The notes under the pieces are model-generated. The model ran no database searches and was not told the DNA's origin. It saw only the letters and a program-made list of their open reading frames with translations. A stretch of DNA of 64,000 nucleotides from assembly GCA_965178125.1 (NCBI GenBank), contig OZ237740.1, positions 1,054,001 through 1,118,000 on the forward strand, read 5' to 3'. The DNA is from Bilabrum cf. latius. Lineage: Eukaryota. Positions 1 through 63,707 of this stretch are shown in pieces. Both the position numbers and the translations under genes were made by a program. Position 1 is the first letter of the stretch. Every line of letters begins with the position of its first letter.

Positions 1-1848
1 GCTGTCAGCAGCAGCACCCCTTCGTCCGACGCTCGCCGGTTCCTGCTCCTCTTCCTCTTCATCCTCCTCTTCATCAGTAAGCCCCATGCGCCGGCAAGCA
101 TCGGCACCAAGCTCCATGTCGCCGTGCACGGCCGCGTACCACACGTCACACCACGCCCGTCGGAACGAAGGAGACAGCCTGCTGTACATGCCGTGGTCGA
201 GCATCACGAGCTCGAACGGGCGGTCCACGCCACCGCGGTACATCTCCCCCGCGGCCTTCTTCGCGAACTCGCCCGCGGCCCGTGACATCTGCTGCCCGCG
301 ATCGCCTCGACGCTTGGCTCCATCGCTCCTGCCAGATGCACGCTCTTCTCCTTCCCGCACTCGTGCGTCCGCGCCTTGCACGGCGGCATCGATGGCCTCT
401 TTGGCCTCTTTGGCTCTCCTCTCCGCCTCTATTGCCTGCTGCCTCCAGGGCCCCTCCTCCCCGAGGGGCCGCACAAGGATGTTCCCGGGGTGAGGGTCGC
501 AGTGCACCAGGCCTGCCTCGAACATGAGTGAGGAATAGGCAGCGATCACCCTCCGGGCCACCGTTTCGGGCCGCACGCCCCTCCTCTGCAGCTCTTGGTA
601 GCCCTCCTTGGTGGGCTTGACCCCGCCCGCCAGCTGCATAGTGAGCACTCGGCGTGTCGTCAACCCCCAAGCCACGCCTGGCACCGCGACGGCTCCGTCC
701 GCTGGACTAGATGTGAGCCAATCCCGCCACCCATCGGGGCCCCACCCGCGGCCACCAGCCGCATCGCTCCGCGACATCCACGAAGCAGACGGCGAAGACG
801 ACGCCAACGACGAGGACGAGGCATCCGAGTCGTTGCCACCGCCCACGCTCGCCGCTCCGAACCGACGAGACATCGCCGCCCGGGCCCTCGCGGCGTTGTG
901 ACCCTCCTGTGCGAAATCCAGCTCCAGCGCCAGCACCTGCTCGTAGTCGGGAAGCAGCCACTTGTAGTCGTGCTGCGGAAACAGCCAGGCAAGTGCCCCG
1001 GCGATCGCTCGCATGCCGAGGATGTCGCCCAGCGCCCGGCCGGCTAGCCCCGGATACTGGACCTTCACTGCAACCTCTTGGCCTGCGGCACGAGAGCTTG
1101 ATGAGCCACTGGCAGGCACACCGCCGTTGCGCAGCCTAGCTCGGTGCACTTGTGCCAGGGATGCCCGGCCCAGCGGCTCGGGGTCGAACGTCTCAAACAG
1201 GTCGCTGCAGTCCTCTGCACCACACCTTAGCTCTCTGCGGGCCACAGCCAGCGCCTCTGATGCCGTGATTCCCTTCGCAGCGTCGGTGAGCTCTGATAGT
1301 GTCTTGGTGTACTCATCTGGCAGAGCGTTCGACATGGTGCTCGCATACTGCCCTGCCTTACAGTATATCCCTCCCAGTCCTTTGCACATCCGCAGCACCC
1401 GTTTAGCAGCAGCCAAGTTCAACGCCTTTTCTTGGAGAGAGAGCGCCTCGGCTTGATCGCCGTGCCTAGATTCCATGGCGGCTCGCGCAGCTAGGAACAG
1501 GGGGTCGCGAACCAAGGCAGGTGGGAGCGGTGCGCGCTTTGGCGGTTTTTGTTTCTGCGCACGCTTACGCTTCTTGCCACTTGTGGTACTGTCCGCATCG
1601 GCGGTCGAGGCTGGTGACGTCCAGCCAGGCCCCAGCGCAACCCCAAGCCTCTCAGCATGGCTCAAAACAAGCTATCGAGCCTCTTCATCGCACAATTTCC
1701 GAGTGCTCTTGTGTTTCTAGTCGTGGAAGTAATACCCTGCCCCGACGAAAGCTGCGGTGGAACCGGCCCAGAGAAATCGCCGAGAGCCTGACCAAGCCAG
1801 CTGCAGGTTTCGCAGAACGGACTGCGGCCCAGAAGTAGATGATTCCAT
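1..1848 (-). CDS. ABC1/UbiB-family atypical kinase (ADCK1/ADCK5-like); 3' end runs off the window
   Basis: Manual translation from ATG 1848 through TAGs at 1717 and 1672 gives KAGQYAST, PLGRASLAQVHRARL, VAVKVQYP, LELDFAQEG, VHCDPHPGNILVR and LVMLDHGMY, the ABC1 kinase motifs. It is missing from the ORF track because no stop lies inside the window. Confidence 0.9.
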
Positions 1849-2132
1849 GCGAATATAGCACAGAGATCGAGCTAGGTATTCTTGTTGTGACGCGGAGTTC
1901 AAATTTGAGATAGTTTTTTATTGCTGACGTGCCGTCAAACGAGAAGGAGAACAGATTATCAGTCTTGGATCATCATGCCACAGTGTGGACACACAAGCCA
2001 AGCAAATACCACGGCGCTTGCGCACTAGTGGCTCAGACCAAAAAACACACGAAGCCATCACACGAGACGAGATGGAAACATCACAGCTCCTCCGTGGAGG
2101 ATTCAAAGCCTTCATTCAAGCTGGCTTCCTAA

Positions 2133-4964
2133 TTATTCCATGGCGTGGTACGTCTGCTGCCCGGACTCCCCGGAAGCGTTGATTGGATCCGCAGACGCTC
2201 CAGCCCGCGCTCCACGTAGCATGTAGAATAGGCCCAGACCGAGCCCCACCACCACCACCGCTCCTGCGACGCTGCCTCCGATGATCAGCCCAGGGTTGGT
2301 CGGCTTGCTGGGGCCGCTCGGGCTCGTGCTGGGGCTCGGGAGGGGCGACGGGTCCGGCACGTACCCTCCGTTGCAGAACGTCAGCGCCAGCGAGTTGTTC
2401 CCCGCCAGGAACCGATCGGCGAGAGGCACCCCGGGGCCCTGTGCCGGGGGAGGGGAGAGAGGGCTGCACTGGAACGGGGCTACGGGCCAGCTCTGCTGCG
2501 ACAGGGTCGGGTAGCAGGGCAAGCTGCCGCCCATGCCCGAATCCAGGGCATCTCCTCCGCAGAAGCCGCACCCAGGCTCCTAAGCGCACGTCCAGCACAT
2601 GTCCAGCTGTGACTCGCCAGTCTGCTTGGTCTACATGCAGGCACGAGGAGCGGACAGGTCAACCATGGCTGCCACAACCATGGAACCAACGGTACCTGGA
2701 ACAATGACAACTCCCGGTGGCATGTTCATGACGGCAGAGACAAGCACGTGCCTGCCGTCGTTGCAGGTGGGATGGATGATTGCATTTTGGGACGCAGACG
2801 CGGCCATCTGCCACTTGGGACCGCCTCCCAGATCATGCACGGAAGCGTCCCGCCGATGCACCATCGCGGCCCTCATCGCTCGAGCGGCCCTACCGACCTG
2901 CTTGCTCACCACGTCGTGAAGCACGCGCCAAGCAGCATCACCGCTTGTGGGCACGGCTGCTTCCCCGCTCTCCCCCTTCAGGGTATCATAGTGCTCTTCA
3001 AGGAGCGAGTGCAGCTCCTCGGGGCTTCGCACCCGCGGCACGAGCGATGTGTCATCGTTCGTCTCGCCAGCGAGTGCCCTGATCGCAGGGGACGGCTGCG
3101 CGGGCCACTCGTCGTCGTCATCGGTGGGACTGGCCGGCACTGCAGGGTCGAGCAAAACCGACCGGATCCTGGTTCGTGCGTCGTCCGTGAGCTCAGGGTA
3201 CGGCTGTGCCGCCCTCCCAGCGTTCGGGATGAGGATGGCGAGCCCTTGCAGCTTGCTCTCAAAGGGCTCCAGGTTGCTGTTGGTCACTGCGACAAAGGCC
3301 ATCAGCGTGCTCTAGTCGTTGCCCAAGCTGCTGCTGCTGCCCCGCACTAATCCCTGGGGGCCCACGTTTTTGGGGTTCACGCTGCTGTCAACTGCCACGA
3401 GACCGGGGGATGCGATGTACGTGGTGGTGAACTGGATGCCATACACCGAGTTGTCGATGTTCTGCACCTGCCTCTGGATCCACAGCACGTCCAGCGTGGC
3501 GGGGGCAGCAACGGCGCGCCGCGAATCGGCAGCGCTGCCCGTGGGCTGCTTAACGCCGTACATGTTGCCGCAGCTGTCCAGCACCACGAAAATGTCGACC
3601 CCGCCGACCCGGATTCGCTCGGGGCGTGAGGCGACAGCGGGCACGCTCGAGGTGCAGGTGAACTGTTTGCCCTGCCCTTTCTGAGCCGCAGTCCGCGGCA
3701 CCCAGTCGGACTGGGCCATGAGGCCCCCGTCCTCGTGCGACAGACACACGACCCGCGACACGAACTCCGGCTCGCCCAGTCCCGGGAGGCCCGTTCGGCT
3801 CAAGGAAGCGCACAGGGGGACTGCCCTGCCGTTAGACACCGCGTCTCCGCCGGCCAGCGGGGTCTGCGGCGCGGTGTACGCAGCGGTGTTGAATGCGCTC
3901 ATGTACACGGAGGAGTTGCTGCGCAGGAACTGCGGCTCCACAAGAGAGCTCGCGTTCCTGCGCCACGCTGCTTCGCCGGACCACGGGTCGACTCCGATCG
4001 CGCTCGCTCTCGTCACGCGTTGCGGCCTGCCAGTCGAGGGATCTGTTCCATTCTCCACGCCCCCGAATGTGGTCGCGATTCGGACGGACTTCATGTCAGA
4101 TACCTTGGTGGAAGCATTCAGAACTCCGACTGGATCCGAAACTGCGAATTCAAGACCGCACTGCGATCCGGGCGAGCCGGTGGTGCTGGAACACGCCAGC
4201 AAGTCAATCGCCCACATAGAGGGTACTGGAACTTTATCGGCCGATCCTGTCTGTGCACTGAGCGCCGTCGTGTTGAGCATTTCAAGTCGAAGGATCGCAC
4301 TGCCATTGGTGAGCCAAGTGTTCTTTTCTCCGTACGTTGTGTAGGAAACAACCGCAAAGCGCGGATTTTTATTCAGAGTCGGATCGCGCACAGCAATTGG
4401 AGTGGTCACCCTGCCATTATTTCCAGAGGGGATCGTTCCGAGAGGCGCGAACGATTCGCTGACAGGCGCGACGTAGCTGGGGTGCGTAGCCAGCGCGATC
4501 TACCCGCTGCTACTCTGCACTAAGAATCCATACGGTTGATCAGTTGCATCTAGAATGTACCCAACCGGCTGGGACACGGCGTATGGCTCTCCAAGCGAAA
4601 TGATCGAGTAGCCCATATTCGCATTGGGTGTCACACTCGGTGCCTGTGCCCCGCTTCCATCACCGTTGCATACCTACGAACTCTACTGAATATCAATTGA
4701 AATAATCCGCGTTTCCCGGATAGGTTGTCCCTGCCCAAACTCGCCGTGGTATTTGGGAGGAGTGTACTCGGATGATGCCGACGCCACGAGGAACTGCGTG
4801 GGATATTGAGGGTTTCGAATGAATCGTCCGCTCAAGAGCGACGTCCCGCTGGCACTTCCAGGTACACTAAATCCATCATACTTTGTCACACTTGCGCGAA
4901 CAGCAGAAGCCAGCAGTAGGCTTGCGAGCATGATCCTCTTATTAATGGTTCTCCGGTGCACCAT
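2133..4964 (-). CDS. Single-pass type I membrane protein (~943 aa): signal peptide, large ectodomain, PSI-like Cys cluster, C-terminal TM helix
   Basis: One frame joined across TAGs at 4683, 4674, 4500, 3312, 2631 and 2580; ends at TAA 2133. N-terminal MLASLLLASAVRA, Cys cluster CWTCA*EPGCGFC, TM segment LIIGGSVAGAVVVVGLGLGLFY. Confidence 0.7.
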
Positions 4965-5114
4965 TCGCGAAATGTCCGAGAAACGCCAGCGAAAATTCGA
5001 AGGGTCAGCTACGGTTCCCGCTTAATTTACATGTTGCACTCTGCCGTGAATCAGAGTATGCACAGCTTATACAGTGCCAACCAAGTGGTAGCGCAACCGC
5101 TGATATAGAAGATC

Positions 5115-8100
5115 TCAAGAGGCCACCCTTGCCACCGCGCCCGCCCTGATACTGGCCCCTGAAAACCGAAACTCCCTCCACGCCTTGATGGTCTCCAGCG
5201 CGGTAGCTGCCAAAGAATAGCGAGGACTGGCCCCCACCCCTGCCCCTGCCCCATCAGATGATCCATCGTCTGAACTGCCGTCCAACGCGTCCTGCAGCTT
5301 CAGCACGCATAGCACTAGGGATCGGGCCGCTCTCACGTCTGCCGTCCTCAGTACCCCGCCGCCGTCGCTGCCCCCCGTACCCCCTTTGTGCTTCCCTGGG
5401 TCATCTACATCGCGGTATACGTGAAATTTTAGTGCAGCCAGGCAGTCGCAGTCATCCACCAGCCCCCGACCGCACACTCTTAGCGCCGATGCGGCTGAAA
5501 GTCCTCCCAAATCGGAAAACGGAGACACTGGCTCATCAGGGCGACCAGCGCCACCCTCTTCAAGCGTCGCGTGCTTGCCGCTGCTGCTGCTATCCGCGTC
5601 TACTGCGGCCGTCCCGTCGACAGGTGCATGCAGCTGAACACCGTCCAAGTGCGCTGCAAGCCGGCACAAGCTGTCCAGCACGGCAGCTGCAGAACTAGAC
5701 AGTATGTCCTATTGCCCTTCCACAGCCAGTCGCTGATAATTGATACCACCGGTGACGCTTCCATGCGTGCTAATCGACAGATCCAAGGCAGTGGCGAGGT
5801 CTGTGGACACATGACTCGTCTCCCATGACTCATCTCCCTGATGCGTCGCTGGCTTAAATCGATTGCCAGCCTCAGCGAGTGCCTTGGCTGCTGCGGTCTT
5901 GGCTGCTTCTGCGGCCAGTACACCCGACGACGATGGGGCTGCAGCCTTTGCTGCTTGCAAAGCGGCGTTGCAGAACGAACCAGCGACTGCGCCCCACGCA
6001 AGCCACGCGGCCCCCGCTGCCTTGACTGCGTCTACCACCAGCACGTCATCGCCAGCGCTTGAGAGCGAGTCTAGGCTTGAGCCCATGCTTGGGCTCTCTG
6101 TATTTGCCCGACCCGTATGCACACCGTGCTTTGCACACTCCTACACGGTCCTTGAGACTACTTCGGGCCACGCGACAGCAAGTCCAGGGCAGGCCGACTC
6201 GCTGCACGCCGGCATCAGCGCGGCCAGTTGCTCTTCCACCTTGGCCGCCAGTGCGAGCCTGGCCACTCCTGGCGGGGGCAATGCCAAACCATCTCCCGCT
6301 TCCCCGTAAGCAACTGCGCCATGCATCCCCTGCGCACCCTCAGACTCACCTGCATCTACCTCATTGTGGGTCTGCTTGAGAGCTCGGTTGCAGGCACGGA
6401 TGGCAGCTCGAAGACTGGCTAATCCGGGCACGCTTCGCAGTGCAATACCGGCAAAGAGGCCTGAGCCTTGCCCCAGCAGTAGGTTTCGCACCATGCTGCT
6501 CATGCCACTGCCTGTTCCTAGCAGCACAGCAACGTCGGAGCCATCGAGGCGCCAGCCGGCGGATTGCGGCACCAGGAGTCGAGCAAGCGCCCTTCCAGCG
6601 TGGTCTTGGTCTGCCTTGGCGAGCAGAGGCACCGCCGCTGCAGTGGCAAACGTAACGCCTCCAAGCAAAGCATCACTCGCTGCTATGCTCTAGCAGGCAG
6701 AGCGCAAGATGGATGCCGGTGCCGCTACGACGTCTCTCGCCGGACTCGCGCTGAGTGCAGATGCGGCTGCTGCGTGCATCAGGGGGTTGCCCACCGCAGC
6801 CGCCATGTCAGCACCGAATGGACGAATGCTGGCAGAGCTTAGCACCGCCCGGACAAGATCCCGACACACCCCATCCACCGACACGTCCTCCAGTACAGCC
6901 GCACACACGTCTTCAATGTCGCCGGCCAGATGCTCGCGCCTCGTGCGTGCCGCCAAGCCCTAGTCTTGAGATCCACCACGCGGGGCCACGGGCTGCGGCA
7001 CGTCAACCCAGGGCTGCTGCTGCAGGAGCTGAGCCACGGATGCCTGAATGCGCCCTTCCGCCTTGGCGTGCGCCGCCCCCTTGAATCGACCGGCGCCCGG
7101 TCGGCTGGCAGCACCGCTGCCCCTAGCGCTGGTCAGCACGAGACCCGCCAGCTCAGCAGCCTGCAGCTTGATCAGCTCCCGACGCAGGGGACTGACACGG
7201 AAGACCGATTGGTCACTAGTGCTTCCCTTGCTGCTGGAAGCCTCCTCGAGGTGCGCGAGACCATGCATCAGGGACAGCGGCGCAGATGGTCGGAAGGACC
7301 GGTGCACGTAGCGTCGAAGGTGCAGCGGGAGCGAGCTGCCCTCTGCAATGCACCTCTTCCGAAACGTCCTCTGGATCCTGATCGCGCACATCATGCGGGC
7401 GCTTCTCTGTGAAAGCACGAGGGCAGTGGAGCCCACCGCATCGCCCTGCCTATCAACAGCACCCCCGCCACCAGTTAGAAGCAGCCGCCCGGGCTGGGTG
7501 CTAGCGGTCCCCATCGCGCCGCTGTCCTCGTCTAGAGTCCGTCCCTCATGTCCATTTGCTACGTCAACTGGCAGGGGGCCCGACCGGAGGGCGTTCTCTA
7601 GTGCAGCCAGCTCGCGGTCCGACCGAACCACAGCCAAGGTGCCTCCGAGGTCACCCGAGTCCTCCAGCACGCAGTGCTTTGCACGCAGCAAAGCAAGCAA
7701 GTACCTCCGATACGCCTGCAGCATGCGCCTGCCGTCAGGAGGAGCAGATGCGGCAGACATCTCAGATGCCTTTGCAACGACGGCAGGGTCCGTATCTGCA
7801 GGTCCGCTGACCCCTTTCCCGGGCTCGTTCAGCACGCGGCTACCTCCCTACGTGCTTACCTGTGAGGCACTGAGGATGCTTGCGTCAGCAAGCCGTCGTG
7901 CCGCTTGCATACGCAGGCGGGGCATGGATAGCGCTGCCTCCGTGGTCCAAAGCACGTCTTCATCGGGTGGTTCCAGCCCCAGGGCGCGCTGGGTTTCTGT
8001 GGCGAGCGTGTGCCTAGCTTCCAGCACGGCCCTCTGAACCGAGGCAGGCAGCATACCGAGGCCAGACTGCAGCACCTTCCCCAGAGCCACGTCGCCCGAG

Positions 8101-11100
8101 TGCGCCCCTGCTGCAGCAGAGACTACCGCCCTGGAGCCCAGCCCAAATAGGTCCCTTTCCAGCAGCCTGGACCGCATCGACACGACGTGCACCAGCGAGG
8201 CCATCTGCTGCGGGGTCCATGCGAGCAAGAGGTTTCGTGACAAGGCGCCGCCCCACATTCCGGCGGACTGGGCCGCTTGCGCCGCCACGGCACTTCCCGA
8301 TGCGGCTGCAGCCACGAGGTCCCGCTCCTCGCTGCTATCACCGTTGCCGAGACCCTGCTCCCTCGCAGCGTACTGAGCCAGCTGTCCCGCGATGCGGCCA
8401 TTCTCCACTGCAGGCGCCCACCCGTCCGCCGACAGCTCCGGCAAGGACAGCGAGCGCGCCAGCAGCCCGCGGGCCTCTATGCTCCGCCACAGCGACGCAA
8501 CGTTGACTCGCCCAGCCCCACCAAGCCTGACCGCCGTCTTCGCCATGAGGCCGCTGTACACAAAGTAGGCGTCTGCGAATACTCCGCACGCCTCTAGCAA
8601 GGTCACAGACGGGCACAGCTGGGCGAGAACCTGGAGCGTTTGCCGCATGCTGAGACTGGTCGACGCCTGCCCGAGGAGAAACCTGTCGCGGTGACCCTCG
8701 GAGATGGTCTCTGGTGCCAGCAGCAGGGATGCAGCGTCAGCGCCGCGCCGATGCCGCCGCCTGTCCCGCCTCGCGCGCCCGGTTCCTGTCTTGCCTGCCT
8801 TGGCCTGTTGCTGGTTGCCTGCCTCGTCTTGGTCCCTTTCGCTCCCTTCCTCCGCGTCCGCTGGTTGCGATCCTGTTTCGTCTTGTTCGGCCTGGGTTCC
8901 GGCAAGCGCATCGAACGACGGGAGCTTGGAGGCTGCACGAACCGCCTCGAGCACTTCATCCTCCCTGCAGTGGCTAGCTATGGGGTCGCACGGGCGGGCG
9001 GCTCGGCTACGGCGCCATCCATCCCTGGGTGCCGGTGGCTAGGGGATGGCAGCAAGGTTGGGGTTGTCATCATCCCCATCGCTGTCCACATCCACGGCCG
9101 GCTCCCCCGCGATACTGTCGTCACGCTCGCGCACAGAAACTTCCTTGCTAAACGGGCTCTGGCTGGCCTGCTGCATGGCGTGCACGAGCTCTGCATCCCT
9201 CGCAGCCTGTTCCCTGCGGTACACCCTCAGCAGCACCTCGAGCACCTCGAACAGGTCCACGCACCTGAGCTCCCTCCGGTAGAACTGGTCCATACGCTCC
9301 TGGTGGCTGATCAGCTCGATGGCGTCGTCGTCCTGCTCATCTGTACCCGTTGCTCCGTTCAGATCGACGAGGCTGGATCGGCGACGCTGGCGGCTTGCGG
9401 CGGGAGACGCGCCCCCGTCGCCTGCGATGGCCGAGCTGGCGACGCTTCCTCGCCTGGACGGTGAAGCAGCGCCCTGCGACGCGGCACTGCCACCCACGCT
9501 GCTGCTAGGGTGCGATGCATCGGCGGATGCTGCAGCATCGGCAGGGACAAACTCACCCTTGTTGTTTTGCTGCTCCATCTCTGCGTTCATTCTCTGGATC
9601 ATCGCCTTGTCCGAGGTGGCCATCGCTGATAGCGACTCGTGGCCTCGCATCCCCCGTAGCAGCGCGGCTGCAGACTTCCTCTGACTCGCAGACATGTGCC
9701 TCGGGAGGCGACCCTCCGCCAGTCTCGATTTTTCGCGCACTGCCTTCAATGCCGCTGCACGCTGTTCGGCGGGCGCAGCTCGGAGCAGGTAGACGACCGC
9801 AGAGGTCGCGCGGGCCATCGGAATCCACACCCTGCGAGCTGGCAAGAGCCTCCATTCCTTTCTCCAGGGTACCTCGGACGCGTGGGGGGGCAGCACATCC
9901 GCACGGCTGTCGGGTGCAGGCTCAAAGACACCGCCGTCGTCAACCTCAGTTTCGGGATCTTCCCATCCGACAGGCCCCAGCCGGCTCGCAGCATCGTAGC
10001 AGTCGCTACCATGCGGAGCTCCGTCTGAAGCATGCTGCCCACCAGCTCCGCTTGAAGCCCCCGTGCCCGTGCTCTCGCCACCAGCGTCGGTGCCAGCTGT
10101 CGCTCCGTAGCTTTCTTCTCGCCTGGCCTCATACGCCTTGTTCAGTCGCTCTCGACCCACTGCCTTCTCGCAATCGAACCACAGCGGCGGATGCACCACT
10201 GCTGCATCTGCATCCTGTTCTGCAACCCTCTCCATTTGGGCCAGCTTCATCTCCTGGGATGAGTCAAACGGCAGCATGCGGACTACGAGCGGCATGTCGC
10301 TTGCACTGGAGGCCACCCATCGAGGCCCGTACCTTGCGCCCCACCAGCGCACCGTCTCCATCCCAGTCCACACCGCACTGCTGGAATCCGTTCCTCCGGC
10401 TCCTTGCGCGCCCGCATCCACCATGGCCTTGTCGGGGACAGACACGCCCGTGTCCGCCCCCGAGCTCAGCAGCAGCCGCAGCGCCATGAGCACGTACTCG
10501 AGCCCGTCGGAACCGGTGGCGCCGTCCAGCAGCTGCAGGAAGATGCGTCCCTCGGCGCTCCAAGTGGACAGTTCCTTGGCTCCGTAGAACAGCGCCCAGC
10601 GGTCCGCGTCGCCGGGCCCAATCTGGCGCTCCCACCCAGCGGCCTCTCGGCTGCTGTGCGTCGGTCGGAAAGCCTGGCTGCGCCGCAGAGCCGCCGCAAT
10701 CGCGGACGAGCTGCTGGTCCCATGCACAAGCGCGAGCCTCGCGATCTCCGATAGGGGGCCCGCAGGACCTATCCCAAGCTGGCCGTCATGGTCCCCACGC
10801 TCGATCTCACGCACGCTCAGGTGATCACCCGCAAACCAAGCGTACGCGTAGTCGGCGAGGGGTGCATACCACGAGGCCGCCGGGCCGGCAGCAGCCCGAA
10901 CCGATGCGTCTATCCTTGCCCTCGACAGCAAGATGGCTCGGATGCACCACTGCACCCACGCGGTCGGCCGAGGGCAGGGCGGGTGTGCCATGCCGCGTCC
11001 AATAGGCCTCAGCATGGCGCGAAACCTGGCGGCCGTCACCCGCAGCGCCCAACCCTTGGCACCTACAGCATCCGTTGTGCTCTCGAGGAGCAGCCTGGTC

Positions 11101-13595: not shown

Positions 13596-13969
13596 CGGTC
13601 GATGCTGCAGATTAGTTCCATTTGGTCCAGCTTTAGCGTTCGACGACGACCTAATGCTGCTCTGGCGGAGGGGTGCAGGGCTAACACCTTGTGAGATGTT
13701 GGGACTCTGTCGGACCGAGCTGGACGTACTGGGACCCCCGTGTAGGTCCCATTCTGAGCGCTGGCTTCCGTCTATGTACTACATAAAAGGGATTTTGATG
13801 CCTCTGTTTCCCAAAGAGTAATGTGAGAGTGCTTCAATGAGCCCAAACAGCACCTCCCGCGACCCGTTGAAGGCACGTTTTAATCTCCATCTTCATATTT
13901 GGTCGACTTCAAAGCGGCTAGATTCACTGAAGTCGCTGTAATAGTTGGCATAATCGAAGCAGCACAAAT

Positions 13970-35812: not shown

Positions 35813-35844
<32 letters not shown>

Positions 35845-36856: not shown

Positions 36857-36961
36857 GTGGACTTGTAGCACGCTGCATTTTGTGTCACCCGGAGCCCGAA
36901 CACGCTAGGTTGTCCTCGAATAATCAAAACATTGTCGCCACCTTCAAGTGTGGGCCACAGG

Positions 36962-42177: not shown

Positions 42178-42327
42178 TGCGGTTGATGAATTCATGGATT
42201 GAAGCTGGATTTCTGAAATCTGAAAAAGTCGTATCATTACATTCACTCATCATCATCACCTTCGAGATCTCACAATGGACCCTCGTCCAAAGCTCAAACT
42301 CTGTGGCACTCGTCGAGGCTCCCGAGT

Positions 42328-46985: not shown

Positions 46986-46988
46986 CTG
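46441..46988. repeat. 72-bp coding minisatellite, ~7.6 copies (AQAGGAPEGEAQGEAAPAQAPAAA on the minus strand)
   Basis: TCCCTGTGCC recurs at 46441, 46513 ... 46801; only a few single-base variants between copies. Confidence 0.95.
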
Positions 46989-47020
46989 AAAAAATCTGAA
47001 ATCTGAAATCTGAAATCTGA
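46986..47020. repeat. (TCTGAAA)n heptamer tract, i.e. (TTTCAGA)n on the element strand; second tract at 42212-42227
   Basis: ctgaaaaaa-tctgaaa-tctgaaa-tctgaaa-tctga at 46986-47020, and tctgaaa-tctgaaaaa at 42212-42227. Confidence 0.9.
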
Positions 47021-52404: not shown

Positions 52405-54375
52405 ATGGCAGCCGTAGATTCTATTGAGGATGCAATTGCTGCTATCAGGGACGGGAAGTTTGCGGTAGTCGTTGTGAGGCTGTCCCGAGGCAATACATCC
52501 GGCAGACTTCTGGAAGCAACTGTGTGACGGTGCCTTGCCGGCGACGTGTACAATCAGCTAGTTCTCAAATCAGCTACTCCTCGCAGGACGATTTTGATAG
52601 AGAGAACGAAGGCGACCTCATTCTGAGCGCGGAACGAATGACGACCGAGCGCATGGCTTTCATGGTGAGCAACAGTCAGAAGATGCGACAGGACTTGCTG
52701 CTGCCCTCAGGAAGGTACAATGACGCGCTTGCCGTTTAAGGTCGACTCTGCAGTTTGTATTTATCTGTGTATCAATTGCGTGCCGCAGATTCGCCACACA
52801 AGCGGTGTAATTTGCTCACCGATCACCCGGACGCGAGCAGAGGAGCTGAGGCTGCCGCTCATGGTTCCCGAAAATGAAGATACGCATCACACTGCCTTCA
52901 CAGTTACCGTTGATTTGCACCAGAGGCATGGAACGACAACGGGCATTTCAGCGGAGCAACGCGCAGCAACTGTTCGGGCGCTTGCCTCCGGGGCGATGGC
53001 CAGTGGTGACTTCTAGCGACCTGGCCACGTTTTCCCGTTACGATACTAGAATGGGGGTGTGCTAGTTCGCGGAGGTCACACAGAAGCATCTATTGATTTG
53101 GCAGTGGAGGCAGGAGCAGCCCCTGTGGGCTGCCTGTCGGAGATTGCGAACGACGACGGCACCATGGCCAGGATGGACGAGTGCGCCGAGCTGGCCCGCG
53201 CCCACGGCCTGCCACTCGTCAGCATCGCGGACCTTAGGAGGTACCGCATGCGCAGAGAAGGCCTGGTGCGGTTCATCAGAGGCGAGCATCGCTCGCCGGG
53301 GGCTCGTAAAGCTGCTGGTATCGAATCCGGGCTCGGCGTGGAGGATCCAGCCGGCCTAGGGCTGCTCGTCGGCAGAACGGCCGTCGGTACCGCGCGATAC
53401 ATGTTCCGCAGTGTGCACGACGGAGAGGGCATCGACGGGGAGCACGTGGTTGCCGTGGACGTGCCCGAGGGTTGGGGCGGCCCAGTGGCCGCCGCCACCG
53501 GCAAGGGGTCTGCGTCGGGATCTCCCACGTCCAACCGGGGTTGCGTGTCGGTGCTGGTCCTCCCCAGGGAACAAGCAGCGCCGGGGTCGCTCGCCTGGGA
53601 GGAGGCAACCTCAGTTGCGAGGCGAAAGGCCGCCAGCCGTGGCGACGCACTCGTCACACTGTCCCTGGGCGTGAGCGAGGTGCAGTCGCACCTCACCGGT
53701 GACGGAGCCAAGGCACCGCCCTCTGCGTACGGCGCGCGGGCCCCCGATGCGGTGCGGGCGGTGCTGGCAAGCGGGCGCCCCGCGGAGCTGGAGGAATCCA
53801 AGGACGGCGCCGAGGAACGTTCTTCGGTGTTCGCTGCTGGAGAGGAGGTGGGCATGGACCGTGCGAGCATGGCCGCGGGCCCCTCGGCCGTGGCAGCGCA
53901 ACTGCTTTGCGCCGTGCTCGCCTCGAGTGGCCTGGATCAGCTGGTTGCAACCGGAACCCATGGCAGTGGCGCGGGTACGGGCGTGGGTGCAAGCGGCGAC
54001 GTCGACGCCGCGGCAGGTGGTGCCGATACAGTGCCCGGGCTGGCGGCTCTGATTCGAGCCGCCGCGCCCCCCCTCGTCGCTCCCCTGCCAGCCAGCGGGG
54101 AGGCTGCTGGGGCTGCTGCCGGCGGAGCAGGTGCTTCTGCGAACGTCCGCCTGCTTGCCGTTCCCGGCATGCTCGTTCCTCGGCTTTGGGAGTGGGGAGT
54201 GCCTGTGGATGCGTGCGAATCGCTGGAGCTGGCAGCGGCAGCAGGTGTGCAAGAGGGTGCAGATGCAGAGAGGGGTATTGAATCGGCCGCGGATGCCAAG
54301 GTGGAGGAGCTGGTAGGAAGCAAGAGTACCTCTGCTGCTAGTTTATCCGGGTCTGGCGCGCAGACGTCGGTTTGA
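52405..54375 (+). CDS. ribB: 3,4-dihydroxy-2-butanone-4-phosphate synthase fused to a degenerate GTP cyclohydrolase II-like domain; exons 52405-52473, 52587-52664, 52789-54375
   Basis: SIEDAIAAIRDGKFAVVV|DDFDRENEGDLI, TAFTVTVD, TTTGISA and [30 protein letters not shown] (TAGs 53014 and 53047 inside the core). Ends TGA. Confidence 0.93.
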
Positions 54376-54598: not shown

Positions 54599-56589
54599 AT
54601 GGAGGTAGTATTGCCAGAATCGCGCTGTCAAGTCTGGAAATCGCAACGGTGCCATCCATGCCTTGCTTTGCATCGCAGGAGTGGCTGGCTGGAGTGCAGT
54701 CCGTAAAGCTTAAACCATTTGTAGATGATGCCGTGGAGCAGTCCTAGTCATTCGGTTTACGACGGTACACGGAATATCGGGTGACAGTACAGGGCAACCA
54801 AGGCTCCCAATCTTTCGACTTTTAGTGCCGCCGTCGATTCAGCGACTTCGAATACATGAGACAGTGCTTTGAGCTAAAGTTTCCAGGCATGCTGTTGCCA
54901 GCACTGCCGGGTAAAAAGGCCATAGGAAACATGGGCGATGGTTTCGTCTCCCAGCGAATGCGGGAGCTACAAATATTCTTGATCCGGTGCGGGAATAACC
55001 CGTTCATCAAATCCGATGGCCTGTTTTGGGCGTTCTTGTCATCTGGTAAGGCGGCTTGGGAGGCCCACCGAGCCGCAAGCAAGGACGTGTACCAGATCGA
55101 GTTTCAGGCAGGCCGGCTCGAGCAGTGCGCAGCCCAGGTCGTGGGCCCCATGGTGCCAGCTGCAGTGCCGCTGGAAGGTGCCGTCCGCTGGGTGCAGATG
55201 GTGAACAAGGTAGAAGCAGACCCCGCGATCGAGACCGTCATGGAGGGATCCCTCCGCATGGCTCAGGTCATGACCAAGCAGATGCAGGAGTTCGCATATG
55301 CAGGAAGAAGGATGGCAGAGCATGCAGCGGGGTTGGCTAAAGAGGCCAGCAAGTTCGTGGAGGCCTTCAAGGAGGTGGCCAAATCGGACGAGGGGCTCCG
55401 AGACGGCACGGCGTGGCCCTGCAAGCACGGCCCCCCTTTGGCGGACCTGAGCACCCAGTGCTCCAAGGGCTTTGAGGCCACGGTGCCGCTCCTCCACAGG
55501 CAGCGGCTCGCGCTGGACTCGTTGCTGGTGCAGTTCATCAGCTACGAGTACCACGCGTCGCAGGCCCTCGAGGCCCTCTTGACCAACAGGGCGAATCTCA
55601 AGGCACAGCTGGACAAGCTCAAGGCCGACGGGTCCCGCAAGCCTGCCGACCAGGCCAAGGTGGAGGCTTTGTCCACACAGCTAGCCTTCGTGAGCAAGGG
55701 TATCCGTTCCTATGAGCTGGACAGGTGGGTCAGGGACCGTCTCAAGTCCATGAGAGAGTGCATGGCCTCTGTGGGCCTGGCCATGGCACCCGTGGCAGAC
55801 ACCCAGACTCTCCTGTGGAGGCGCATCGGGGAGGCCGCCATCCCGGCGAGCATACGGGGCGACGAGGCCAAGCGAGGTAATGCCCTGCGGGAGGCCGAAG
55901 AGTTGAGCCGCAGTGCCATGCACGCAATGGCAAAGACGGTCATCCCGGACCTGGTGGGAGGTCCGAAGGGCACGCTGGATCAGCTCGATGACGGCCTCCG
56001 GGCCATGGACGCCCTGCCTTCGCTCCCTCCTGGGGTGATGCCGGGAGGCGCTGGGATCCATGCCCTGGAGGCTCCCGAGCCGGTGCTGCCTCTCCCCGCC
56101 CCATAGCCTGCAGCTGGGGGCGCGCACGGGGGTGCATCTGGTAGGGCTTCAAGTGGTGCTGGGCCCAGGCCGGGGGACCCCTTCGGAGCTGCGGCGGTGA
56201 GCGCCGGGGCAGGTGCGTCCAGCGGCGCCGCTCCCGGAGATCCGTTCGCGAGCAGCGCTGGGGCTGGGGCTGGGGCTGGGGCTGGCGCTGGAGGACCGCA
56301 AGCTGTCCCAGCCGCCCACCCTGGAGACCCTTTTGCCGTCGGCGCCGGCAGCAGTGCTGCCTCCGCTCCTGTCCCGGGTGCTGGGGCTGGTGCTGGTTCA
56401 GGTGCAGGTGCAGGTATTGGCAATCCGTTTGGAGGTGGCGCTAGTTCTCAGCCGGCGGCGCAGAGCCAGCCTGAAGGGGGTCACGGCGGAGAGGCCCCTC
56501 CACCGCCACCGCCGGCTGGAAAGCCGCCTGGCAGCAGCAGCCAGAGTAGTGGCGAGGGGGAAACGAATCCGTTTGCAGACTACGAGTGA
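54599..56589 (+). CDS. PX-BAR sorting nexin-like protein with a DPF/NPF-rich tail; probable intron 54605-54678 (5' exon uncertain)
   Basis: YTEYRVTV, F*CRRRFSDFEYMR, FPGMLLPALPGKK, FVSQRMRELQIFL and a helical BAR-like region. TAGs at 54745, 54823 and 56104; ends TGA. Confidence 0.85.
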
Positions 56590-56897
56590 TATGTCACGGT
56601 TGATCTGCTCCTAGTCAGGGCAGAACATAAATCCGTGCAGAGCCGCACGCAATTTGAAGGAACCACCGGCCAGCGAGCAGCCAATGACCGGAATCGGATC
56701 CATCGCGATGAGCGATCCCAACTCTCACGCATCTTGGGAGTCACTGCGGGAGCAAGAAACCAGCGGCGGCATTCAATTATATTTAGCCTGAGGGCTTCAT
56801 CATCCACCGCGGGCTATATCTTGCAGCAAACGCCAAAACTCTGGCGTGATCCCACACAATGCAGAACATGTCGGCCGGTGCTGCGTAGTTTCTAGCA

Positions 56898-58472
56898 ATG
56901 ATGGATGACAGCGACGACGATGAGATATTTGACAAAGAGACTGTTGTTCGGAAGGCAGAGCTGCGACCGCTGCTCCACTGTCCGCTGTGCAACAAGCCAT
57001 ATAGGAATGCAACTGTGGTCATCGAGTGCGGTCACACGTTTTGCAGAGGTTGCGTTGAGCCACACATCAGCGAAGACAAGACATGTCCTAAATGCAAAAC
57101 CCGAGTGAATGGCCTGGATCGTCTGCAGCAAGATATGGTGCTGCAAGGCTTGTCAGACAAATTTGCAGACGCTTGTTCGCGGCCGTTCACAGAATGTGAT
57201 CTCAGGCGAATAAAAGGTGGCGATTCTGCTGAATCAGACATGAATGGGGGGCATGGTATAGCAGCAACCAGTGGAGAGGCACCAGCGCAGACAGGCTCGT
57301 CGGCAGCGGGCGCGACGCCGCCAAAGAGACAGCTGCCGTGGGTGCCTCCTGAGGCTAAGGCCAGCGACCCTCTCCCCTACAACGTGCTGCCACCTTCATC
57401 TTAGGACCTAGACGAAGCAGTTCGAATCCTGTTATTGCCGACTGCCTTGAAACCGGGCCAATCAGAGATCGAGTGGCCGAGCAGCCCAGGGCCGCAGTTG
57501 CCTGGCAAGTCTGCCAGCGGGGCCGCCCCCTCGAGCGCCCCAGCCGGCGAGCACTCTGCCAGCAACACGCCCAGGTCTGACGAACAACGAGCTTTGGAAG
57601 CCTCCCGCGTGGGTTCCTTCGTGGCCGGGATGCAGCTCGCCAGGGCCTCCTCCTCCTCCTCCAAAAATGGCGACAGCACCGGTGCTGCCGAGGCCTACCG
57701 CTGGCCGGCCTGCGGGCCTCGGGGCAGGCCCGACAGGTGGATCGTCGTGCCCGTGTTCATGAAGGTTCGCTAGCTGCGGCGATACGTGGCCACGAAGACG
57801 GGCGTCCCGGAGGAGGCGGTGGTCCTGAGCGCCGGCGGCACGGTGCTCAGAGGCGAGGAGCACACGCTTCAGTTCGTGGCCCGGCTGGCAGCCTCCAAGG
57901 CCCGCATCCAGCTCGAACAGGCGACCGCAGGGGGCGGCGTCGACCACGAATCGGTGCAGGCCTCTGTCCTGCGAGCCTGCGCCCCGGAGGTCTCTGACCA
58001 GGAGCTCGTGCAGCCGGGGGCTCCCAGGCCAAAGGTGGAGGCCCTGTGCACTCGTCACTACGACGGGGGCGCGCTCAGGTCTCTCTCCGTGGAGTACTCG
58101 GTGCCGTAGCCGCCCCCCGGATCCAAACGGGTCGCCGCGCCCCCGCGACTGGCCTTGCAGGCGCAGGCGGCGGGTCGCGCGTTTGCCCCACCCCTCGCTG
58201 CGGCAGCGTTGGGTGGCGATCGTCGTGACGCCACAGTGGCATCGCGTGGGGCAGCGCCGAATGGGCATGGGCCACAGAAGCAACCCAGCGCATTTGCTAG
58301 CAGCAGCAGCAGCAGCAGCAGCCGTAGCAGTCTTGGTGGTGCCATGCAAGTGCCCATGGAGACAGAGGCAAATGACTCTCGCGTGCCAGAGGAGGAGCAA
58401 GCTGGTGCAGGCACTGCTTCCGCGGGACAGAGTGAGCCCCAAAGCACGACGTGGGCGACGCTACTGAAATGA
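56898..58472 (+). CDS. Polycomb-group RING finger (PCGF/BMI1-like: C3HC4 RING plus RAWUL-like domain)
   Basis: LHCPLCNKPYRNATVVIECGHTFCRGCV...CPKC...DMVLQGL; RAWUL-like MKVR*LRRYVATK...LRGEEHTLQFV. TAGs at 57402, 57771 and 58107; ends TGA. Confidence 0.8.
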
Positions 58473-58540: not shown

Positions 58541-61537
58541 TCACGCAGTTGTGGGGAGCCCGGGCTCCTCACATTCCTCCAGCACATCGGCGATGATCTC
58601 AGCCGGGGCCCACGGCTGGAACTCTTCCTCTAGAAGTTCCTCCAGCGCCACCGCCTCGGCGCGGGTGCCCCCACCTCGCGCCACCAGTGCCCTCCGCGGG
58701 CCATCGCTGGCACCAGCCGCTCCTGAGGGCAAGAAGCCCTCACCTGCTGGCCGCATCGGGTCCACCACCCGCACGTTCTCGTCCGCAACCCAGCCGCCGC
58801 CCACCAGCCCGTAAGGAGACTTGAGAAACTCGTCCATTTCTTGAGGAGTGTCCGCGTCCACCTGCCCCGGACACGCGCCGTACTCCCGGCTGGAGCTCAC
58901 GCCCTGCCGATCGGCCGCACCACCCATAAGCCTAGACTCGCTGGCCCCTGGGCCAAAGAGCTGATCCCAGCCGTCGCCTCCAGGGACGTCCATCACCTCC
59001 TTGGCCGTGGCGGGACGGATGCGGTGGGCGAGGCACGGTAGTGCTGCCGACCTGACGTCAGCGGTGGTCACGTAGTTCCGCCCAAACCGCACTGCGCACA
59101 GCCTGGCGAACTGCAGCAGATCCTCGCCACCCCTAGGCCCCGCTCCCTGGAACACCGCAGGGTGCCCTGCGATGCCCCGCAGCACTGCGTGCACCATGTC
59201 GCCGACCGCCCTGGCCACCGGCTGCGCCTGCAGGGAGAGAAGCGCGGTGGCGTGCTTGCCCCCGATACCCAGCGCGCCCAGCCCCATGGCGTCCACTCTG
59301 GCCATGTCCGCGTCGCTCATGCTCATCCTGGGCCCAATTCCCGGCCCCGCGACGTCGCCGTTAAATCCCTCGTACAGCACGGAGGAGTACTCTGTGCCCG
59401 AGGGGGAGCCTGTCTGCCGAGACAAAGACATCTGCGTGGGCGTGCTGTGGTCGGGCGAGCCATGGGCTGCCTCGGGCGTGTCCCGGGTAGCACCCTGCAG
59501 AGGGGGCCTGCTTTGACCTGGTCCTGGCTGCTGCAGTCTCTGCTGCTGCCTGTCATTGTCCAGTCGGTCGAGCGCGGTAAGATTCCCCCCGGCAGCAGCT
59601 GTCGCGAGCCCGGATGTGACATTCCCGTCGTTGTCCTGTCCTTGCCCCCCATCCAGCACTGCCTTCGGAGTGAAGGGTTCCAGCAGCCCACCGCTGACAG
59701 TGGGCGTGTCGTCCCCGTGACCTGCACTGGATCTCAGCGGGTCTCCGTTCCGGACAGTCCCGTCGCTGCTGGCACCTTGCTGGGATAAGTGCTCGCCATC
59801 ACCTGCCTTGGCCTCCTCTTGCTCCAGCAAGCCCTTTGTACCCGACCCATCGTGCAGCGAGGATACCTTCTTGGGCGAAAAGCTGGCGGGAGGCCCGCTC
59901 CGTGAGCCCTGCCGCGGCCTGTCGGCCTCCCCCCCTGGTAGGGGTGGTGGCGGGGGGGGAGACTCTACCTGACTACCCCTGCCTCCGACTCCGATTTTGA
60001 CCCGCCCACCCCTCTCTTTCTGCCCAAGCGCGCCCCCGCTGCCAGATTCTTCATCTTCACGCAAATCCAAGCGGGAGCCGCCTCGGCTGCCATCTGTGGC
60101 TCGTGCACGCCTCCCGTGCGCCTCGTGCTACTAGCCGGCCGCGCTGTGCAGATCCACTCCGCCCCGACCAGCCTGGCCGCTTCGTTCCCGTGGCAGCCCG
60201 GGCAGAGTGCCCTGCAGCGGCCCCTGACCTCCAGCCGGCGCGACCCCCCCCGTGCTCTCCTTGTCGCCGCCCTGCTCCTACTGCTCCTCCTGCTGCACCG
60301 CCGGACGCGCTTGCTGCCCGCCCACTGCGGCTGTAGAGTACGCCACCGATCCATCGTCATCATTGCCCTCTAGCTCCTGCTACTCATCGCCACCAGGTGC
60401 TGGAGCGGCACGTGTGGTTCCATGCATGGCCAGCGAGGCTTCACCTGATGCGTGCTGGTGCTGCTGCTGCCGGAGGTCTGACACTGGTGTGTTTCGAGTG
60501 CTTCCCACGCCATGAAGCAGGCCGAGCCCGCCGCGGGCCTGATTTGCGACAGCGCTGCCACTGCCGGTGCCAGTGCCCTTGCCAGTGCCTGTGTGGGCCA
60601 TGGTGCTGGGGCCACTCGTGGGCGGCTGCTCGCTCGCTCGGCTCATCCTGCCCGGCTCCCCTCCGGTCGCTGAGCTGCTCGTTCCCTCCACTGTCTGCAA
60701 CAGATGCGGTTGCTCAAATGCGGATGTCAGTGCAGACACGCACGTGAAACTGCTGGCCACTTCCGGAATCACGGCCTCGCTCTCCAGATCATTCAGTAGC
60801 GCGCCCTGGGTCGTCGGGTGGTCGGACCTGCCCATTTCTTCGTCTTCCGGAGCAAACGACGTTGGTGGACGGGTAGCAATGATAATCGTGCGAGGTGAAA
60901 GTCTGTGCACGACCTATTCAACGACGAGTGTTCCTGTCCCAAGGCCCTGGCCCTGCCTGCTCTCCGGCGGCACCTCTGGAAGGGAATACTAGCCCGTCTC
61001 CAGAACCTCCCGCAATGCATGCTGGAACGAGGAATCAGCCTTATGCAGTGACTGTACCAATACAATGCGAAACTAGGACGTGTCATTGTCCTGGAGTCCA
61101 ACCAATGTGACATTCAGGTCTATAGGCCGGAAGCTCTCGCTGGCGCAGTCTATGCACACGCATGCCGTTCGAGGTGACCCTTCCTGTGGTGGCGATGCTA
61201 ACGAAATAACTGCAAGCCGAATAGCCGGCGTGGCCATGTCGAGACCGTCAGGGACCTCTAGCAACAGGCTCGGTACTCGAAAATCCTAGTAGTGGCCTAT
61301 CGACTTTGAGTTGGATTCGCACTGAATTGCTAGCGGGTGCAATTCTCGAAGCAGCTGCAATTTCTGGGATCGAAATGCGATTTCTCTGTCCTGCTGAGCC
61401 TGCCTCAGCGTTTGTCGCCGGGGTGATGTCTGGCCGCCACTGCCAGGATGCATGCCAGGTGATGGACTGTACTACAGGTACCGCCGAGGAGACACGCCAG
61501 CTGACCGATCCCCGAGAGTCCCAGCATCTGATTGCAT
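58541..61537 (-). CDS. MoxR-like AAA+ protein, apparently catalytically degenerate (~998 aa)
   Basis: MoxR-type lid GAGPRGGEDLLQFARLCAVRFGRNYVTTADVRSAALPCLAHRI; Walker-B region IVLVQSLHKADSSFQHALREVLETG*Y. Nine TAGs (61472, 61286, 61073, 60989, 60914, 60380, 60278, 60131, 60128); stop TGA 58541. Confidence 0.7.
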
Positions 61538-61730
61538 CGCAGATATTTGGGCTTGAACCAGTCAAACGATATGCCACGGTTTCCTAGACCGCAGCCAGGT
61601 ATTCCCGGTCGGCGAATCCGAGTCGTCGGAATCCGTCCTCACGTGTTGTGTAGAGCGATCAATAACCGAAGCCCGCAGCAATATTCTGATTGATCGCTTC
61701 TGTACCACCTAGTTATTGCTCGGATCTTTG

Positions 61731-63707
61731 ATGGGAGCCGTAGTAGTCCCGTGGGCATTCTTGCTACCGAGTCTGCTTGCTCTGCGGCACGCAGCACTCG
61801 CTCAATCAACACCTGTCTACGGCAAGGATTACTCGGGTCTTGACTACAATATCTCGTATTGGTCCAGTCCCGTTTCAAAGAGTGCAAACCATTGGAAAGC
61901 AGCCGCAATTGAATGTGAAAACCATTGCGAGAATGACTAGCATTGCTGCGCCTGGACGTACTGCACGCCAGAAGGAGGTCCAAAGGATCCTGAACGATGC
62001 TGTAAGAAGTACGGCCTCCCGAACGAAGTGTCTGCGACGACGCACTGGACGGGTCTTTCAAGCCGGGGGTAGGCCGGCAACTGCAGCGCGTGGGCTCCCT
62101 GGTCCGAGCCCAGGATCCACTTCACGTCAAAGTGCTTGCAGCAGGGTGGCTGGCACGATATCGCGGCATCCATCTCGATCGATGCTGCGCACGAGCCGGG
62201 TGCTTATGCCGGCCTCCGGCACCACGTGTTTCAAGGGTGTCCGCTCGCTGGAGGCTGGCACCACGCCTCCTCGAACGACTTTGTCCACTGGCAGGACCAA
62301 GGCATGGCCGTGACCGAGTGGCCTGAGCCATGGGGAGAGTCGTCACCCTGCAGCGGGTTTGCCGCCCTGTTTCCCAGCTGGCAGCCGGGGCGGCCCAAGA
62401 CATAGATTTGCGCGGGGTACCGTCAGTGCTAGAGCAAGCGTGGTATCGGGCCCAACCCATGGAACGTTCCCCTCGAGGTTCGCTGCACAGAAGGAAGCGA
62501 GCCCGGGGGGAACACGTCATGGGGCGCGCCGGAATACCTCTTCGACGTCTTCTTCAACCGTGCACTCCCTTACGACCCGGTGCGGCCTTGGGTGGACGAG
62601 GATGGGAGATGGTACACGGCTATCTCCATGGATGGCTGCAACGGGACCGCGCGCGGTGATTGCGCAAGCAAAGGGGGCCGCATGGTACTGTGGTCCGCAA
62701 CGGTACCCAGGGGTCCAGCAGCTGACTGGGCACTGGTTGGCACGCTCTTCGAGTCGAACAAGACCGTGCTCACTCCCAAGGGGGAGGGGACCGTCCTGGA
62801 CAAGGAGTTCGTGACTTCCAACTATTTCGGTGCCGTGCCCGGGGACCCGCTCGGTGGTCGCACTCGTGTGTTTACGAATAATGTGGGCGGGTTGGGCTGC
62901 TGCAGTGGCACAACAGGGTATTTTTTGGGCACGCAGTCTGGCCCGGGCGCCCAGCTGCTGGTGAACGAGTCCTCGCCGCACCACATGGGCATGCTGGACT
63001 GGGCCGCGTTCCTACCTGATCAAGCCGCCATCGCGAAAGGAGCCAAGGGAGCAATGGCCCTGCTTGGCACTGGCACCCGCGGCTTCAGCATGGCCAGGAC
63101 GCTGGGCAGCCCCGACGCCGACCAGGTCCTGCACCCTGGGCGACGAGTCGTCGTGGGGTGGCTTGGCATGACGCCGGCCATGCAAAGTCTGCCCAGGGAC
63201 ATTTCGCTCTCGTCGGAAGGAGAGCTGCTGCAGGCATTCGTGCCTGAGCTCGTGACCCTGAGGAAGCAGGCAGAGCCAGATCCAGGACGTGGTGCGGGAG
63301 GAGCACTGGCGCTGTCCGAAGATGATGTGCTCGGCCAGGGCCTGCAGATGGAGCTGGTTGTGGACGTGCTGCCTGCGACAGCTAATGAGACAATGGGAAT
63401 CGTGGTGCAAGAAGACCCGACCAAGGAAGGAGCCAGCGGTGTCAAGATCCTAGTAGATCCCAAGACTGAGCTCCTTCACGTCCTCGACCGTGCCGGACCC
63501 CTGCCCCCGGCAGGCGGCAGTGGGGCTGCGGGATGGCGCCTGCACGTCTTCGTGGACGGCAGCTCGATCGAAGTCATATGCAACAACCGCACTGCCCTTG
63601 CGGTGCAGGTTCCTGCCCGCGAGGGGTGCATGGAGTGCAACCAGGCGCGGCTGCTCAAGGGCACCAAGGTGGCCAGCGCGGTGGCGTGGCCCCTCGATCC
63701 GATCTGA
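61731..63707 (+). CDS. Secreted GH32-like (beta-fructofuranosidase fold) glycoside hydrolase with an N-terminal PAN/apple-like domain
   Basis: Signal peptide; CENHCEND*HCCAWTYC; PRIHF...GWHDIAA, WHHASSNDFVHW, YDP, GRRVVVGW, QSLPRDI and LHVFVDGSSIEV. TAGs at 61938, 62070, 62403 and 62430; ends TGA. Confidence 0.82.

Follow-up and report, generated by a model that had tools for sequence, protein, structure and literature searches.

The window analysed here, a stretch of 64,000 nucleotides from Bilabrum cf. latius (contig OZ237740.1 of assembly GCA_965178125.1, positions 1,054,001 to 1,118,000 of the forward strand), very probably follows a nuclear genetic code in which UAG encodes glutamine (Gln) and UAA and UGA are the stops, i.e., a code of the type of NCBI translation table 15. 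The window, with a GC content that goes from 58 to 67% (62% overall), is nuclear and belongs to a GC-rich eukaryote in which genes are dense and spliceosomal introns short. Practically all genes of the window read through UAG, and, as the alignments discussed below show, TAG stands where relatives and distant homologs carry Gln. A preliminary description of this DNA, made from its letters and open reading frames, had proposed both that TAG is Gln and that TAA is not reassigned, and the two proposals are borne out by the analysis reported here.

The longest stop-to-stop frame of the window has 717 codons in the standard code, whereas with TAG as a sense codon it reaches 2925 codons and is followed by frames of 2547, 1594, 1436, and 1006 codons; with TGA as sense, no frame exceeds 717 codons. 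Greedy selection of non-overlapping stop-to-stop frames with TAG as sense gave 24 frames, which cover 92% of the window and contain 112 in-frame TAG. At least one TAG is found in 22 of them, and one of the two frames that have none lies antisense to a kinase gene. The 18 gene models, counted from their first ATG, amount to 17,707 codons and hold 100 TAG in frame, which agrees with the figure of about 100 given earlier, together with no TAA and no TGA; every model has at least one TAG, the maximum being 18 in the HECT gene. The counts in the other two frames of these genes are 136 and 105 for TAG, 34 and 63 for TAA, and 267 and 285 for TGA. TAG thus reaches about the same frequency in the reading frame as outside it and is not avoided in these genes, whereas TAA and TGA are excluded. 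Read as Gln, it accounts for 100 of 863 Gln codons (11.6%), with Gln at a frequency of 4.3%. Since the frames contain the Pfam families ABC1, PseudoU_synth_2 with S4, MIF4G, SLC35F, HECT, TPT, RVT_1, DHBP_synthase, PX, RING, and AAA_lid_2, they are genuine, ordinary eukaryotic genes. All the positions that the preliminary description had named as examples are indeed in-frame TAG, including those in RibB (53014 and 53047) and in the PX gene (54823), the tandem pairs (29693 with 29696, and 60128 with 60131), and those at 12909, 24434, 25700, 28513, 33794, 37208, 39056, 42604, and 60278.

The residue specified by TAG was approached through distant homologs in the first place. The TAG at 25700..25702 (+) falls in the eIF4G motif R-F-x-x-Q-D-V-L/I-D. 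All 13 homologs aligned have Q at this column; they include five fish, two Volvox, Chloropicon, and Coccomyxa, and the eIF4G matches, from green algae and fish, are 24–31% identical. Q also stands there in all three human eIF4G paralogs in the PDB, so that the motif match put forward earlier proved correct. Two further eIF4G columns read Q6 E6 A1 (24434) and A, P, Q, Q, K plus eight gaps (25589). At 28513, in the A-Y-x-Y-T motif of the SLC35F transporter, the residues are Q7 N3 R2 S1 A1 (n = 14), and the Gln that had been expected there is thus found in half of the homologs. The TPT columns, read from 150 cluster representatives, give K53 Q41 L18 at 37208 and E95 Q33 at 37481. Log-odds in nats, obtained with a simple pseudocount model and summed over nine such columns, both RibB columns included, are +10.5 for Q and −1.8 for H, and all other residues fall below −6 (K and R at −6.6, E at −8.7), with L and S outside the eight best residues listed. 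The TAG columns of the PX, pseudouridine-synthase, and GH27 genes are too variable to indicate a residue; accordingly, the PX site at 54823 is an in-frame TAG as claimed, but one that does not inform on identity. Within the window itself, a paralogous segment of ~130 bases, 83% identical between the eIF4G N-terminus and the HECT gene, aligns CAG 23387–23389 with TAG 33794–33796, as had been pointed out before.

A second line of evidence comes from a relative. Scanning metagenome contigs with the TPT protein led to one locus (L001) of 12,831 bases and 57% GC, in which a HECT gene is followed by a TPT gene, in synteny with the window; the HECT proteins are 45% identical and the TPT proteins 51%. 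Reading TAG as sense lengthens the longest frame of L001 from the 526 codons of the standard code to 2708, and the three frames of the locus (3,890 codons) hold 34 TAG and no TGA. Ortholog columns were retained if one species has TAG there and if identity extends to at least 10 of the 20 columns that flank it. At the 16 columns of this kind the partner residue is Q in six (CAG five times, CAA once), P in two, and A, S, M, R, L, D, H, and K in one each, and one further column is TAG in both species. With substitution frequencies taken from the HECT and TPT alignments themselves, the log-odds are +15.5 nats for Q and −4.5 for the runner-up, K, and the binomial chance of six Gln among 16 at a Gln frequency of 4.3% is about 3 in 100,000. 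A masking control, in which 16 random positions of a known residue were treated in the same way (200 trials per residue), returned the correct residue in 91–100% of the trials (97% for Q, 94.5% for K), the positions of H and N being too few to score. Regarding the TAGs of the window TPT gene, the partner in L001 is CAG at 37208, where the preliminary description had placed Gln in an SLC35C2-like protein, and CAA at 37481. As just one TAG column is shared in the HECT and TPT alignments, the turnover among TAG, CAG, and CAA seems to be fast between species. In the HECT gene of L001 (3–8126, +), 30 TAG are found next to 54 CAG and 26 CAA, i.e., TAG makes 27% of the Gln codons, against 11.6% in the window.

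Several results weigh against this assignment, and they are considered here together with the readings that they favour. The first of these readings gives UAG a double meaning, as a sense codon within genes and, depending on the context, as a terminator at some gene ends, which we regard as improbable. The DNA sequence is compatible with context-dependent termination, a TAG lies within 6–10 codons of the TGA in two genes (SLC35F and the retroelement), and ambiguous codes are on record, as reported for some ciliates and, with UAA, for Blastocrithidia. However, the 17 complete models end in TGA (15) or TAA (2), and no gene end of the window requires TAG as a stop. The HECT genes of the window and of L001 both end at the canonical HECT C-terminus, at the same residue, and the TPT gene of the window, which ends in TAA, and its ortholog, which ends in TGA, have their ends no more than three residues apart. 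In addition, as many as 18 TAGs are read through in a single gene.

A reading in which UAG is sense but specifies another residue, such as Lys, Glu, Leu, Ser, or Tyr, is very unlikely, even with nuclear codes having UAG as Leu and as Ser on record (PMC11687900). It draws on a number of individual columns. The TPT site 39056, for which Gln had been proposed, is Lys (AAA) in L001 and R28 K20 E16 Q16 H13 in distant homologs, which does not uphold the proposal, and the other two TPT columns have more K and E, respectively, than Q, with E equal to Q at eIF4G 24434. The RibB columns, from 120 homologs, favour A/V at 53014 (A68 V21 N10 H9, Q in none) and R/K at 53047 (R85 K10 A7, Q in four); these two TAGs are inside the enzyme core, as had been stated, but at variable columns that have no Gln preference, and therefore they show read-through and not identity. 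Of the 16 ortholog columns, a small sample, 10 have a partner other than Gln, and a cruder control that hid all copies of a codon failed in 3 cases out of 11 (CAG, AAG, and TAC). The proportion of Gln partners is, however, that expected of a Gln codon, because Gln itself is conserved in only 0.45 of the columns in the HECT and TPT alignments, and the cruder control failed because hiding all copies removes most of the data for a residue. Against the other residues stand the two sums given above, the second of which was obtained with a calibrated method, the invariant Gln of eIF4G, and the prevalence of CAG/CAA as the commonest partner codon; as for Leu, Ser, and Glu, the first two occur once each among the 16 partners and Glu never does.

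Equally to be considered is a table-6 type of code, with UAA and UAG both read as Gln and UAA merely scarce owing to the high GC content. UAA and UAG are usually reassigned together, according to PMC5304391 and PMC11687900, and TAA is scarce in the window (171 occurrences against 445 of TAG). Even so, the ratios CAA:CAG, GAA:GAG, and AAA:AAG predict 25–33 in-frame TAA if the two codons had the same meaning, and none is seen in the 17,707 codons of the window genes, nor in the 3,890 codons of L001, while TAA does occur in the out-of-frame readings counted above. Treating TAA as sense hardly lengthens the frames, since the five longest are unchanged and the sixth goes from 962 to 1000 codons, and in L001 it brings no gain. 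The absence of in-frame TAA, the use of TGA and TAA at gene ends, and the agreement of these ends between orthologs together indicate that UAG is Gln and that UAA and UGA are stops, and make a shared reassignment of UAA a highly implausible one.

The letters themselves were compared with contigs (not raw reads) from public sequencing runs over positions 21500–41400, which hold 39 TAGs. Runs of four studies contain this stretch, and none of them has another letter at any of these TAGs; the coverage is 39 of 39 in X1, which is possibly the source sample itself, at least 36 in X7, and, among the pieces listed, 27 in X5 and 11 in X6. One contig of X6 joins 22997 to 23088 and 23110 to 23208, omitting 90 and 97 bases, and then covers 23208–27499 with no differences, through six TAGs of eIF4G. 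Since this contig skips two GT..AG introns, it represents a spliced transcript in which, at the level of the contig, the six TAGs are neither edited nor spliced out. The depth of X5 and X6 follows the gene borders, being 205 and 56 over eIF4G against 3–17 in most other bins. The labels of the runs ("RNA?") are, however, guesses, and none of the runs that contain the stretch is recorded as RNA; the spliced contig is the one argument that X6 is RNA. The picture of intron-free genes conveyed by the preliminary description was not confirmed, as eIF4G has two introns and the AGC kinase gene at least two coding ones, and a small share of the 100 TAGs could lie inside unrecognised in-frame introns. 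That the in-frame TAGs in general are not translated as such, being assembly or consensus errors, sites of U-to-C RNA editing, or parts of small introns, is hardly conceivable, for although introns of 90–97 bases exist in this genome and the runs are only guessed to be RNA, the contigs of four studies agree, the spliced contig retains its TAGs, other TAGs sit within contiguous conserved motifs, and a second species has the same pattern.

Pyrrolysine was likewise weighed as a meaning of UAG and dropped, as conserved columns give a Gln signal that speaks against it. The pyrrolysine system is not known outside archaea and bacteria. PMC5304391 places it in "certain prokaryotes".

Three more points weigh against the assignment of UAG to Gln. 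The evidence comes from the 64-kb window and 12.8 kb of a relative, a base smaller than a genome; scanning for tRNA genes found none in the window or in L001; and the gene for eRF1 is not within the window.

Regarding the mechanism, UAG would be decoded by a tRNA-Gln(CUA), which could have arisen from tRNA-Gln(CUG) by one anticodon change and would be expected to pair with UAG and not with UAA, while the recognition of UAG by eRF1 would have been lost or weakened, with changes expected in its stop-codon recognition motifs (GTS, NIKS, YxCxxxF). A tRNA(CUA) together with an altered eRF1 is also the basis predicted for UAG-only codes in PMC5304391 and PMC11687900. In our own view, judging from the stop usage and the base composition, GC pressure may have made UGA the dominant stop and UAG a rare one, and the capture of UAG would then have been cheap.

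The code does not appear to be confined to one genome. The best TPT matches in a representative protein library are fragments, namely P0151 (83 residues, 99% identity), P0154 (78 residues, 87%), and P0148 (241 residues, 84%). P0151 and P0154 end right before a TAG of the window, whereas P0148 ends at one TAG and starts two residues past another, and by the position of their ends these fragments appear to be products of gene calling under the standard code. Taken with L001, they point to a code that is common to a group of related organisms and not to one odd assembly. A tentative proposal, on which our judgment is almost evenly divided with a slight leaning to the negative, is that these organisms belong to one clade, so far undescribed, of protists that are GC-rich and not ciliates, which acquired UAG as Gln independently and has UGA as its main stop. 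Such a clade would take in the window, the relative of 84–87% identity from which the broken gene calls stem, and the organism of L001, and would possibly be related to stramenopiles. The leads are weak: the best SLC35F match is from Cafeteria (38% identity), and Heterosigma and one EukProt transcriptome are among the TPT matches. The protein-atlas matches to a kinase exon belong to mixed taxa (Perkinsozoa, Chordata, and Bacillariophyta).

UAG as Gln with UAA as a stop is already a known kind of code, and what would be new here is the lineage, the GC-rich setting, and a termination dominated by UGA. In the fornicate Iotanema spirale, UAG is Gln while UAA continues to terminate (Panek et al. 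2017, PMC5304391). Iotanema and the window are alike in that both are non-ciliate, UAG alone is reassigned, to Gln, and UAA terminates, and the predicted mechanism is the same, namely the origin of a tRNA-Gln(CUA) from tRNA-Gln(CUG) along with a change in eRF1. They differ in the dominant stop, which is UAA in Iotanema and the rhizarian (PMC5304391) and UGA in the window (15 of 17 ends); the window also has 62% GC and encodes an ABC1/ADCK-type kinase, the comparison being one of descriptions and not of sequences.

The same code as that of the window is found in ciliates, since UAG is Gln and UAA is not reassigned in Protocruzia tuzeti and in two phyllopharyngean lineages (McGowan et al. 2024, PMC11687900). 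The share of the reassigned codon among its synonyms is 18.5–31.8% in two ciliates (PMC11687900), to be compared with the 11.6% of the window and the 27% of the L001 HECT gene. The window is without ciliate traits, given its GC content of 62% and the contigs of 212 kb and 226 kb in the runs that hold the stretch. Ciliate genomes are typically AT-rich.

A stop-to-Gln reassignment outside the ciliates is also known from Amoeboaphelidium protococcarum, an aphelid parasite of algae, in which TAG and TAA are both reported to encode Gln (PMC6299283, PMC5304391), and UAR as Gln is further reported from ulvophytes and many ciliates. The window resembles Amoeboaphelidium in having such a reassignment in a non-ciliate, and two runs, labelled as algae and as protist metagenome, share a small part of its words, which is a hint only. 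In contrast, TAA is not a sense codon in the window, and its closest named homologs are from stramenopiles (Cafeteria and Heterosigma) and not fungal or opisthokont, two points that speak, without being decisive, against identity with this aphelid. Finally, crAss-like phages with TAG as Gln have formally the same codon table (table 15, TAG as Gln with TAA and TGA as stops; PMC9523058). Those phages recode by means of a suppressor tRNA in hosts employing the standard code, whereas the window comes from the nuclear genome of a cellular organism, in which introns and genes for eIF4G, HECT, and PX proteins are present. A search of the literature found no description of UAG as Gln in a GC-rich non-ciliate, its coverage being partial and therefore no proof that the case is unpublished.

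Reassignments of stop codons in nuclear codes are rare, and a separation of UAG from UAA is rarer still and limited to few lineages (PMC5304391, PMC11687900). A further case would give independent information on the way in which eRF1 and a tRNA(CUA) can split UAG from UAA, and it would bear on whether the pressure of base composition prepares a change of this kind. The case presented here combines a genome of 62% GC, UGA-dominated termination, at least one further related species, and a retroelement with TAG codons of its own. If the proposed clade is real, it would offer a natural test of codon capture under GC pressure, at a base composition opposite to that of most known reassignments. There is also a practical side, as gene calling with the standard code shatters the genes, one transporter being present in public protein collections as fragments of 83–241 residues cut off at TAG, so that assemblies of such organisms need to be re-annotated with the right table.

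The genes of the window are described next in the order of their positions. An ABC1/ADCK-like kinase gene (1..1917, −; Pfam ABC1, E = 1.9e-49), whose 3′ end is beyond the window, has two TAG (1717 and 1672) and is followed by a 962-codon frame of no assigned family (2136..5024, −) with six TAG and a TAA end. The longest frame, with 2925 codons and no Pfam family (5118..13895, −), has 11 TAG and a TGA end and would be cut under the standard code into pieces of at most 717 codons, and a 589-codon frame, also of no assigned family (13931..15700, +), has three TAG. Between this frame and the next gene lies a tandem duplication of a 1818-base unit (15721–19356), the two copies of which have one mismatch within the unit, at 16005; the unit has no Pfam or Rfam match, with only dubious Pro/Arg-rich frames on its minus strand, and an Rfam search of the whole window gave no match.

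An AGC-type protein kinase gene (19079–21130, +) with a TGA end has at least two coding introns of ~90–100 bases (GTGAG...CAG). Its Pkinase and Pkinase_C domains are in separate frames (19875–20657 and 20336–21127), and the kinase core has no TAG. A RluB-like pseudouridine synthase with an S4 domain (21590..22882, −), recognised by Pfam and by a PDB match to RluB (E = 1.2e-37), has two TAG. The eIF4G-like gene with its MIF4G domain (22957..27430, +) has its main exon from 23208, with six TAG, preceded by the two GT..AG introns at 22998–23087 and 23111–23207 (90 and 97 bases, each starting with GTGAG and ending with CAG). Once these are removed, the frame extends up to an ATG at 22957 through a Gln-rich stretch with an extra TAG at 22981; this ATG is the likely start, and because the upstream frame is open to it, what look like leader introns may be coding introns. 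A second contig of X1 (6815 bases, depth 25 against 13.5) matches the eIF4G parts 24305–24579 and 27114–27158 with 8–9 differences per piece and in another arrangement, and it may be an eIF4G paralog or a divergent allele.

Next are an SLC35F-family transporter gene (27520..29115, −; Pfam SLC35F, E = 1.4e-58) with four TAG, including that at 28513, and the HECT ubiquitin-ligase gene (29279..36856, +; Pfam HECT), whose 18 TAG include the tandem TAGTAG at 29693 and which ends in TGA. A GAC/GAG-rich stretch at 35795–35845 encodes an acidic run of the HECT protein; it attracts, in all four runs, unrelated contigs by the hundreds and reaches a depth of 394–2273 (0.3–17 in the HECT bins on either side), and loose ends and false joints abound. 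The SLC35C2/TPT-family transporter gene (36959..39316, +; Pfam TPT) has six TAG and a TAA end, and a 652-codon frame of no assigned family (40291..42246, −) has three TAG. The retroelement-like frame with a reverse-transcriptase domain (42331..47073, −; Pfam RVT_1) has 10 TAG, i.e., it is written in the variant code of its host, and its N-terminus is a tandem peptide repeat of about eight copies of a ~24-residue unit. A GH27-like glycosidase (48013..49566, +; PDB match to a GH27 beta-L-arabinopyranosidase, E = 1.7e-38) has one TAG, at 48769, and a frame of no assigned family (49876..52248, +) has six.

The RibB (DHBP synthase) gene (52720..54375, +; Pfam E = 5.8e-56, and a PDB match), with its two TAG at 53014 and 53047, carries a long C-terminal extension of ~370 Ala/Gly-rich residues in the place where its best matches, bacterial RibBA of ~60% identity, have the GTP cyclohydrolase II half. 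Its domain matches only positions 43–191 of the 191 of the profile, and the missing N-terminal part may be in an upstream exon. The remaining genes are those for a PX-domain, sorting-nexin-like protein (54658..56589, +; three TAG), a RING-finger protein (56859..58472, +; four TAG), a protein with an AAA_lid_2 domain (58544..61537, −; nine TAG, including the tandem pair 60128/60131), and a GH32-like secreted protein (61731..63707, +; four TAG), which against the PDB gave only a short match of 38 residues with no TAG inside.

The gene order after TPT differs between the two species. In L001, positions 11204–12831 are a homolog of the window gene at 49876..52248 and come directly after the TPT gene, whereas in the window the two genes are separated by ~10 kb (39331–49810) in which the retroelement lies together with two glycosidase-like genes and some small frames. 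The difference is due to an insertion or rearrangement that took place since the species split.

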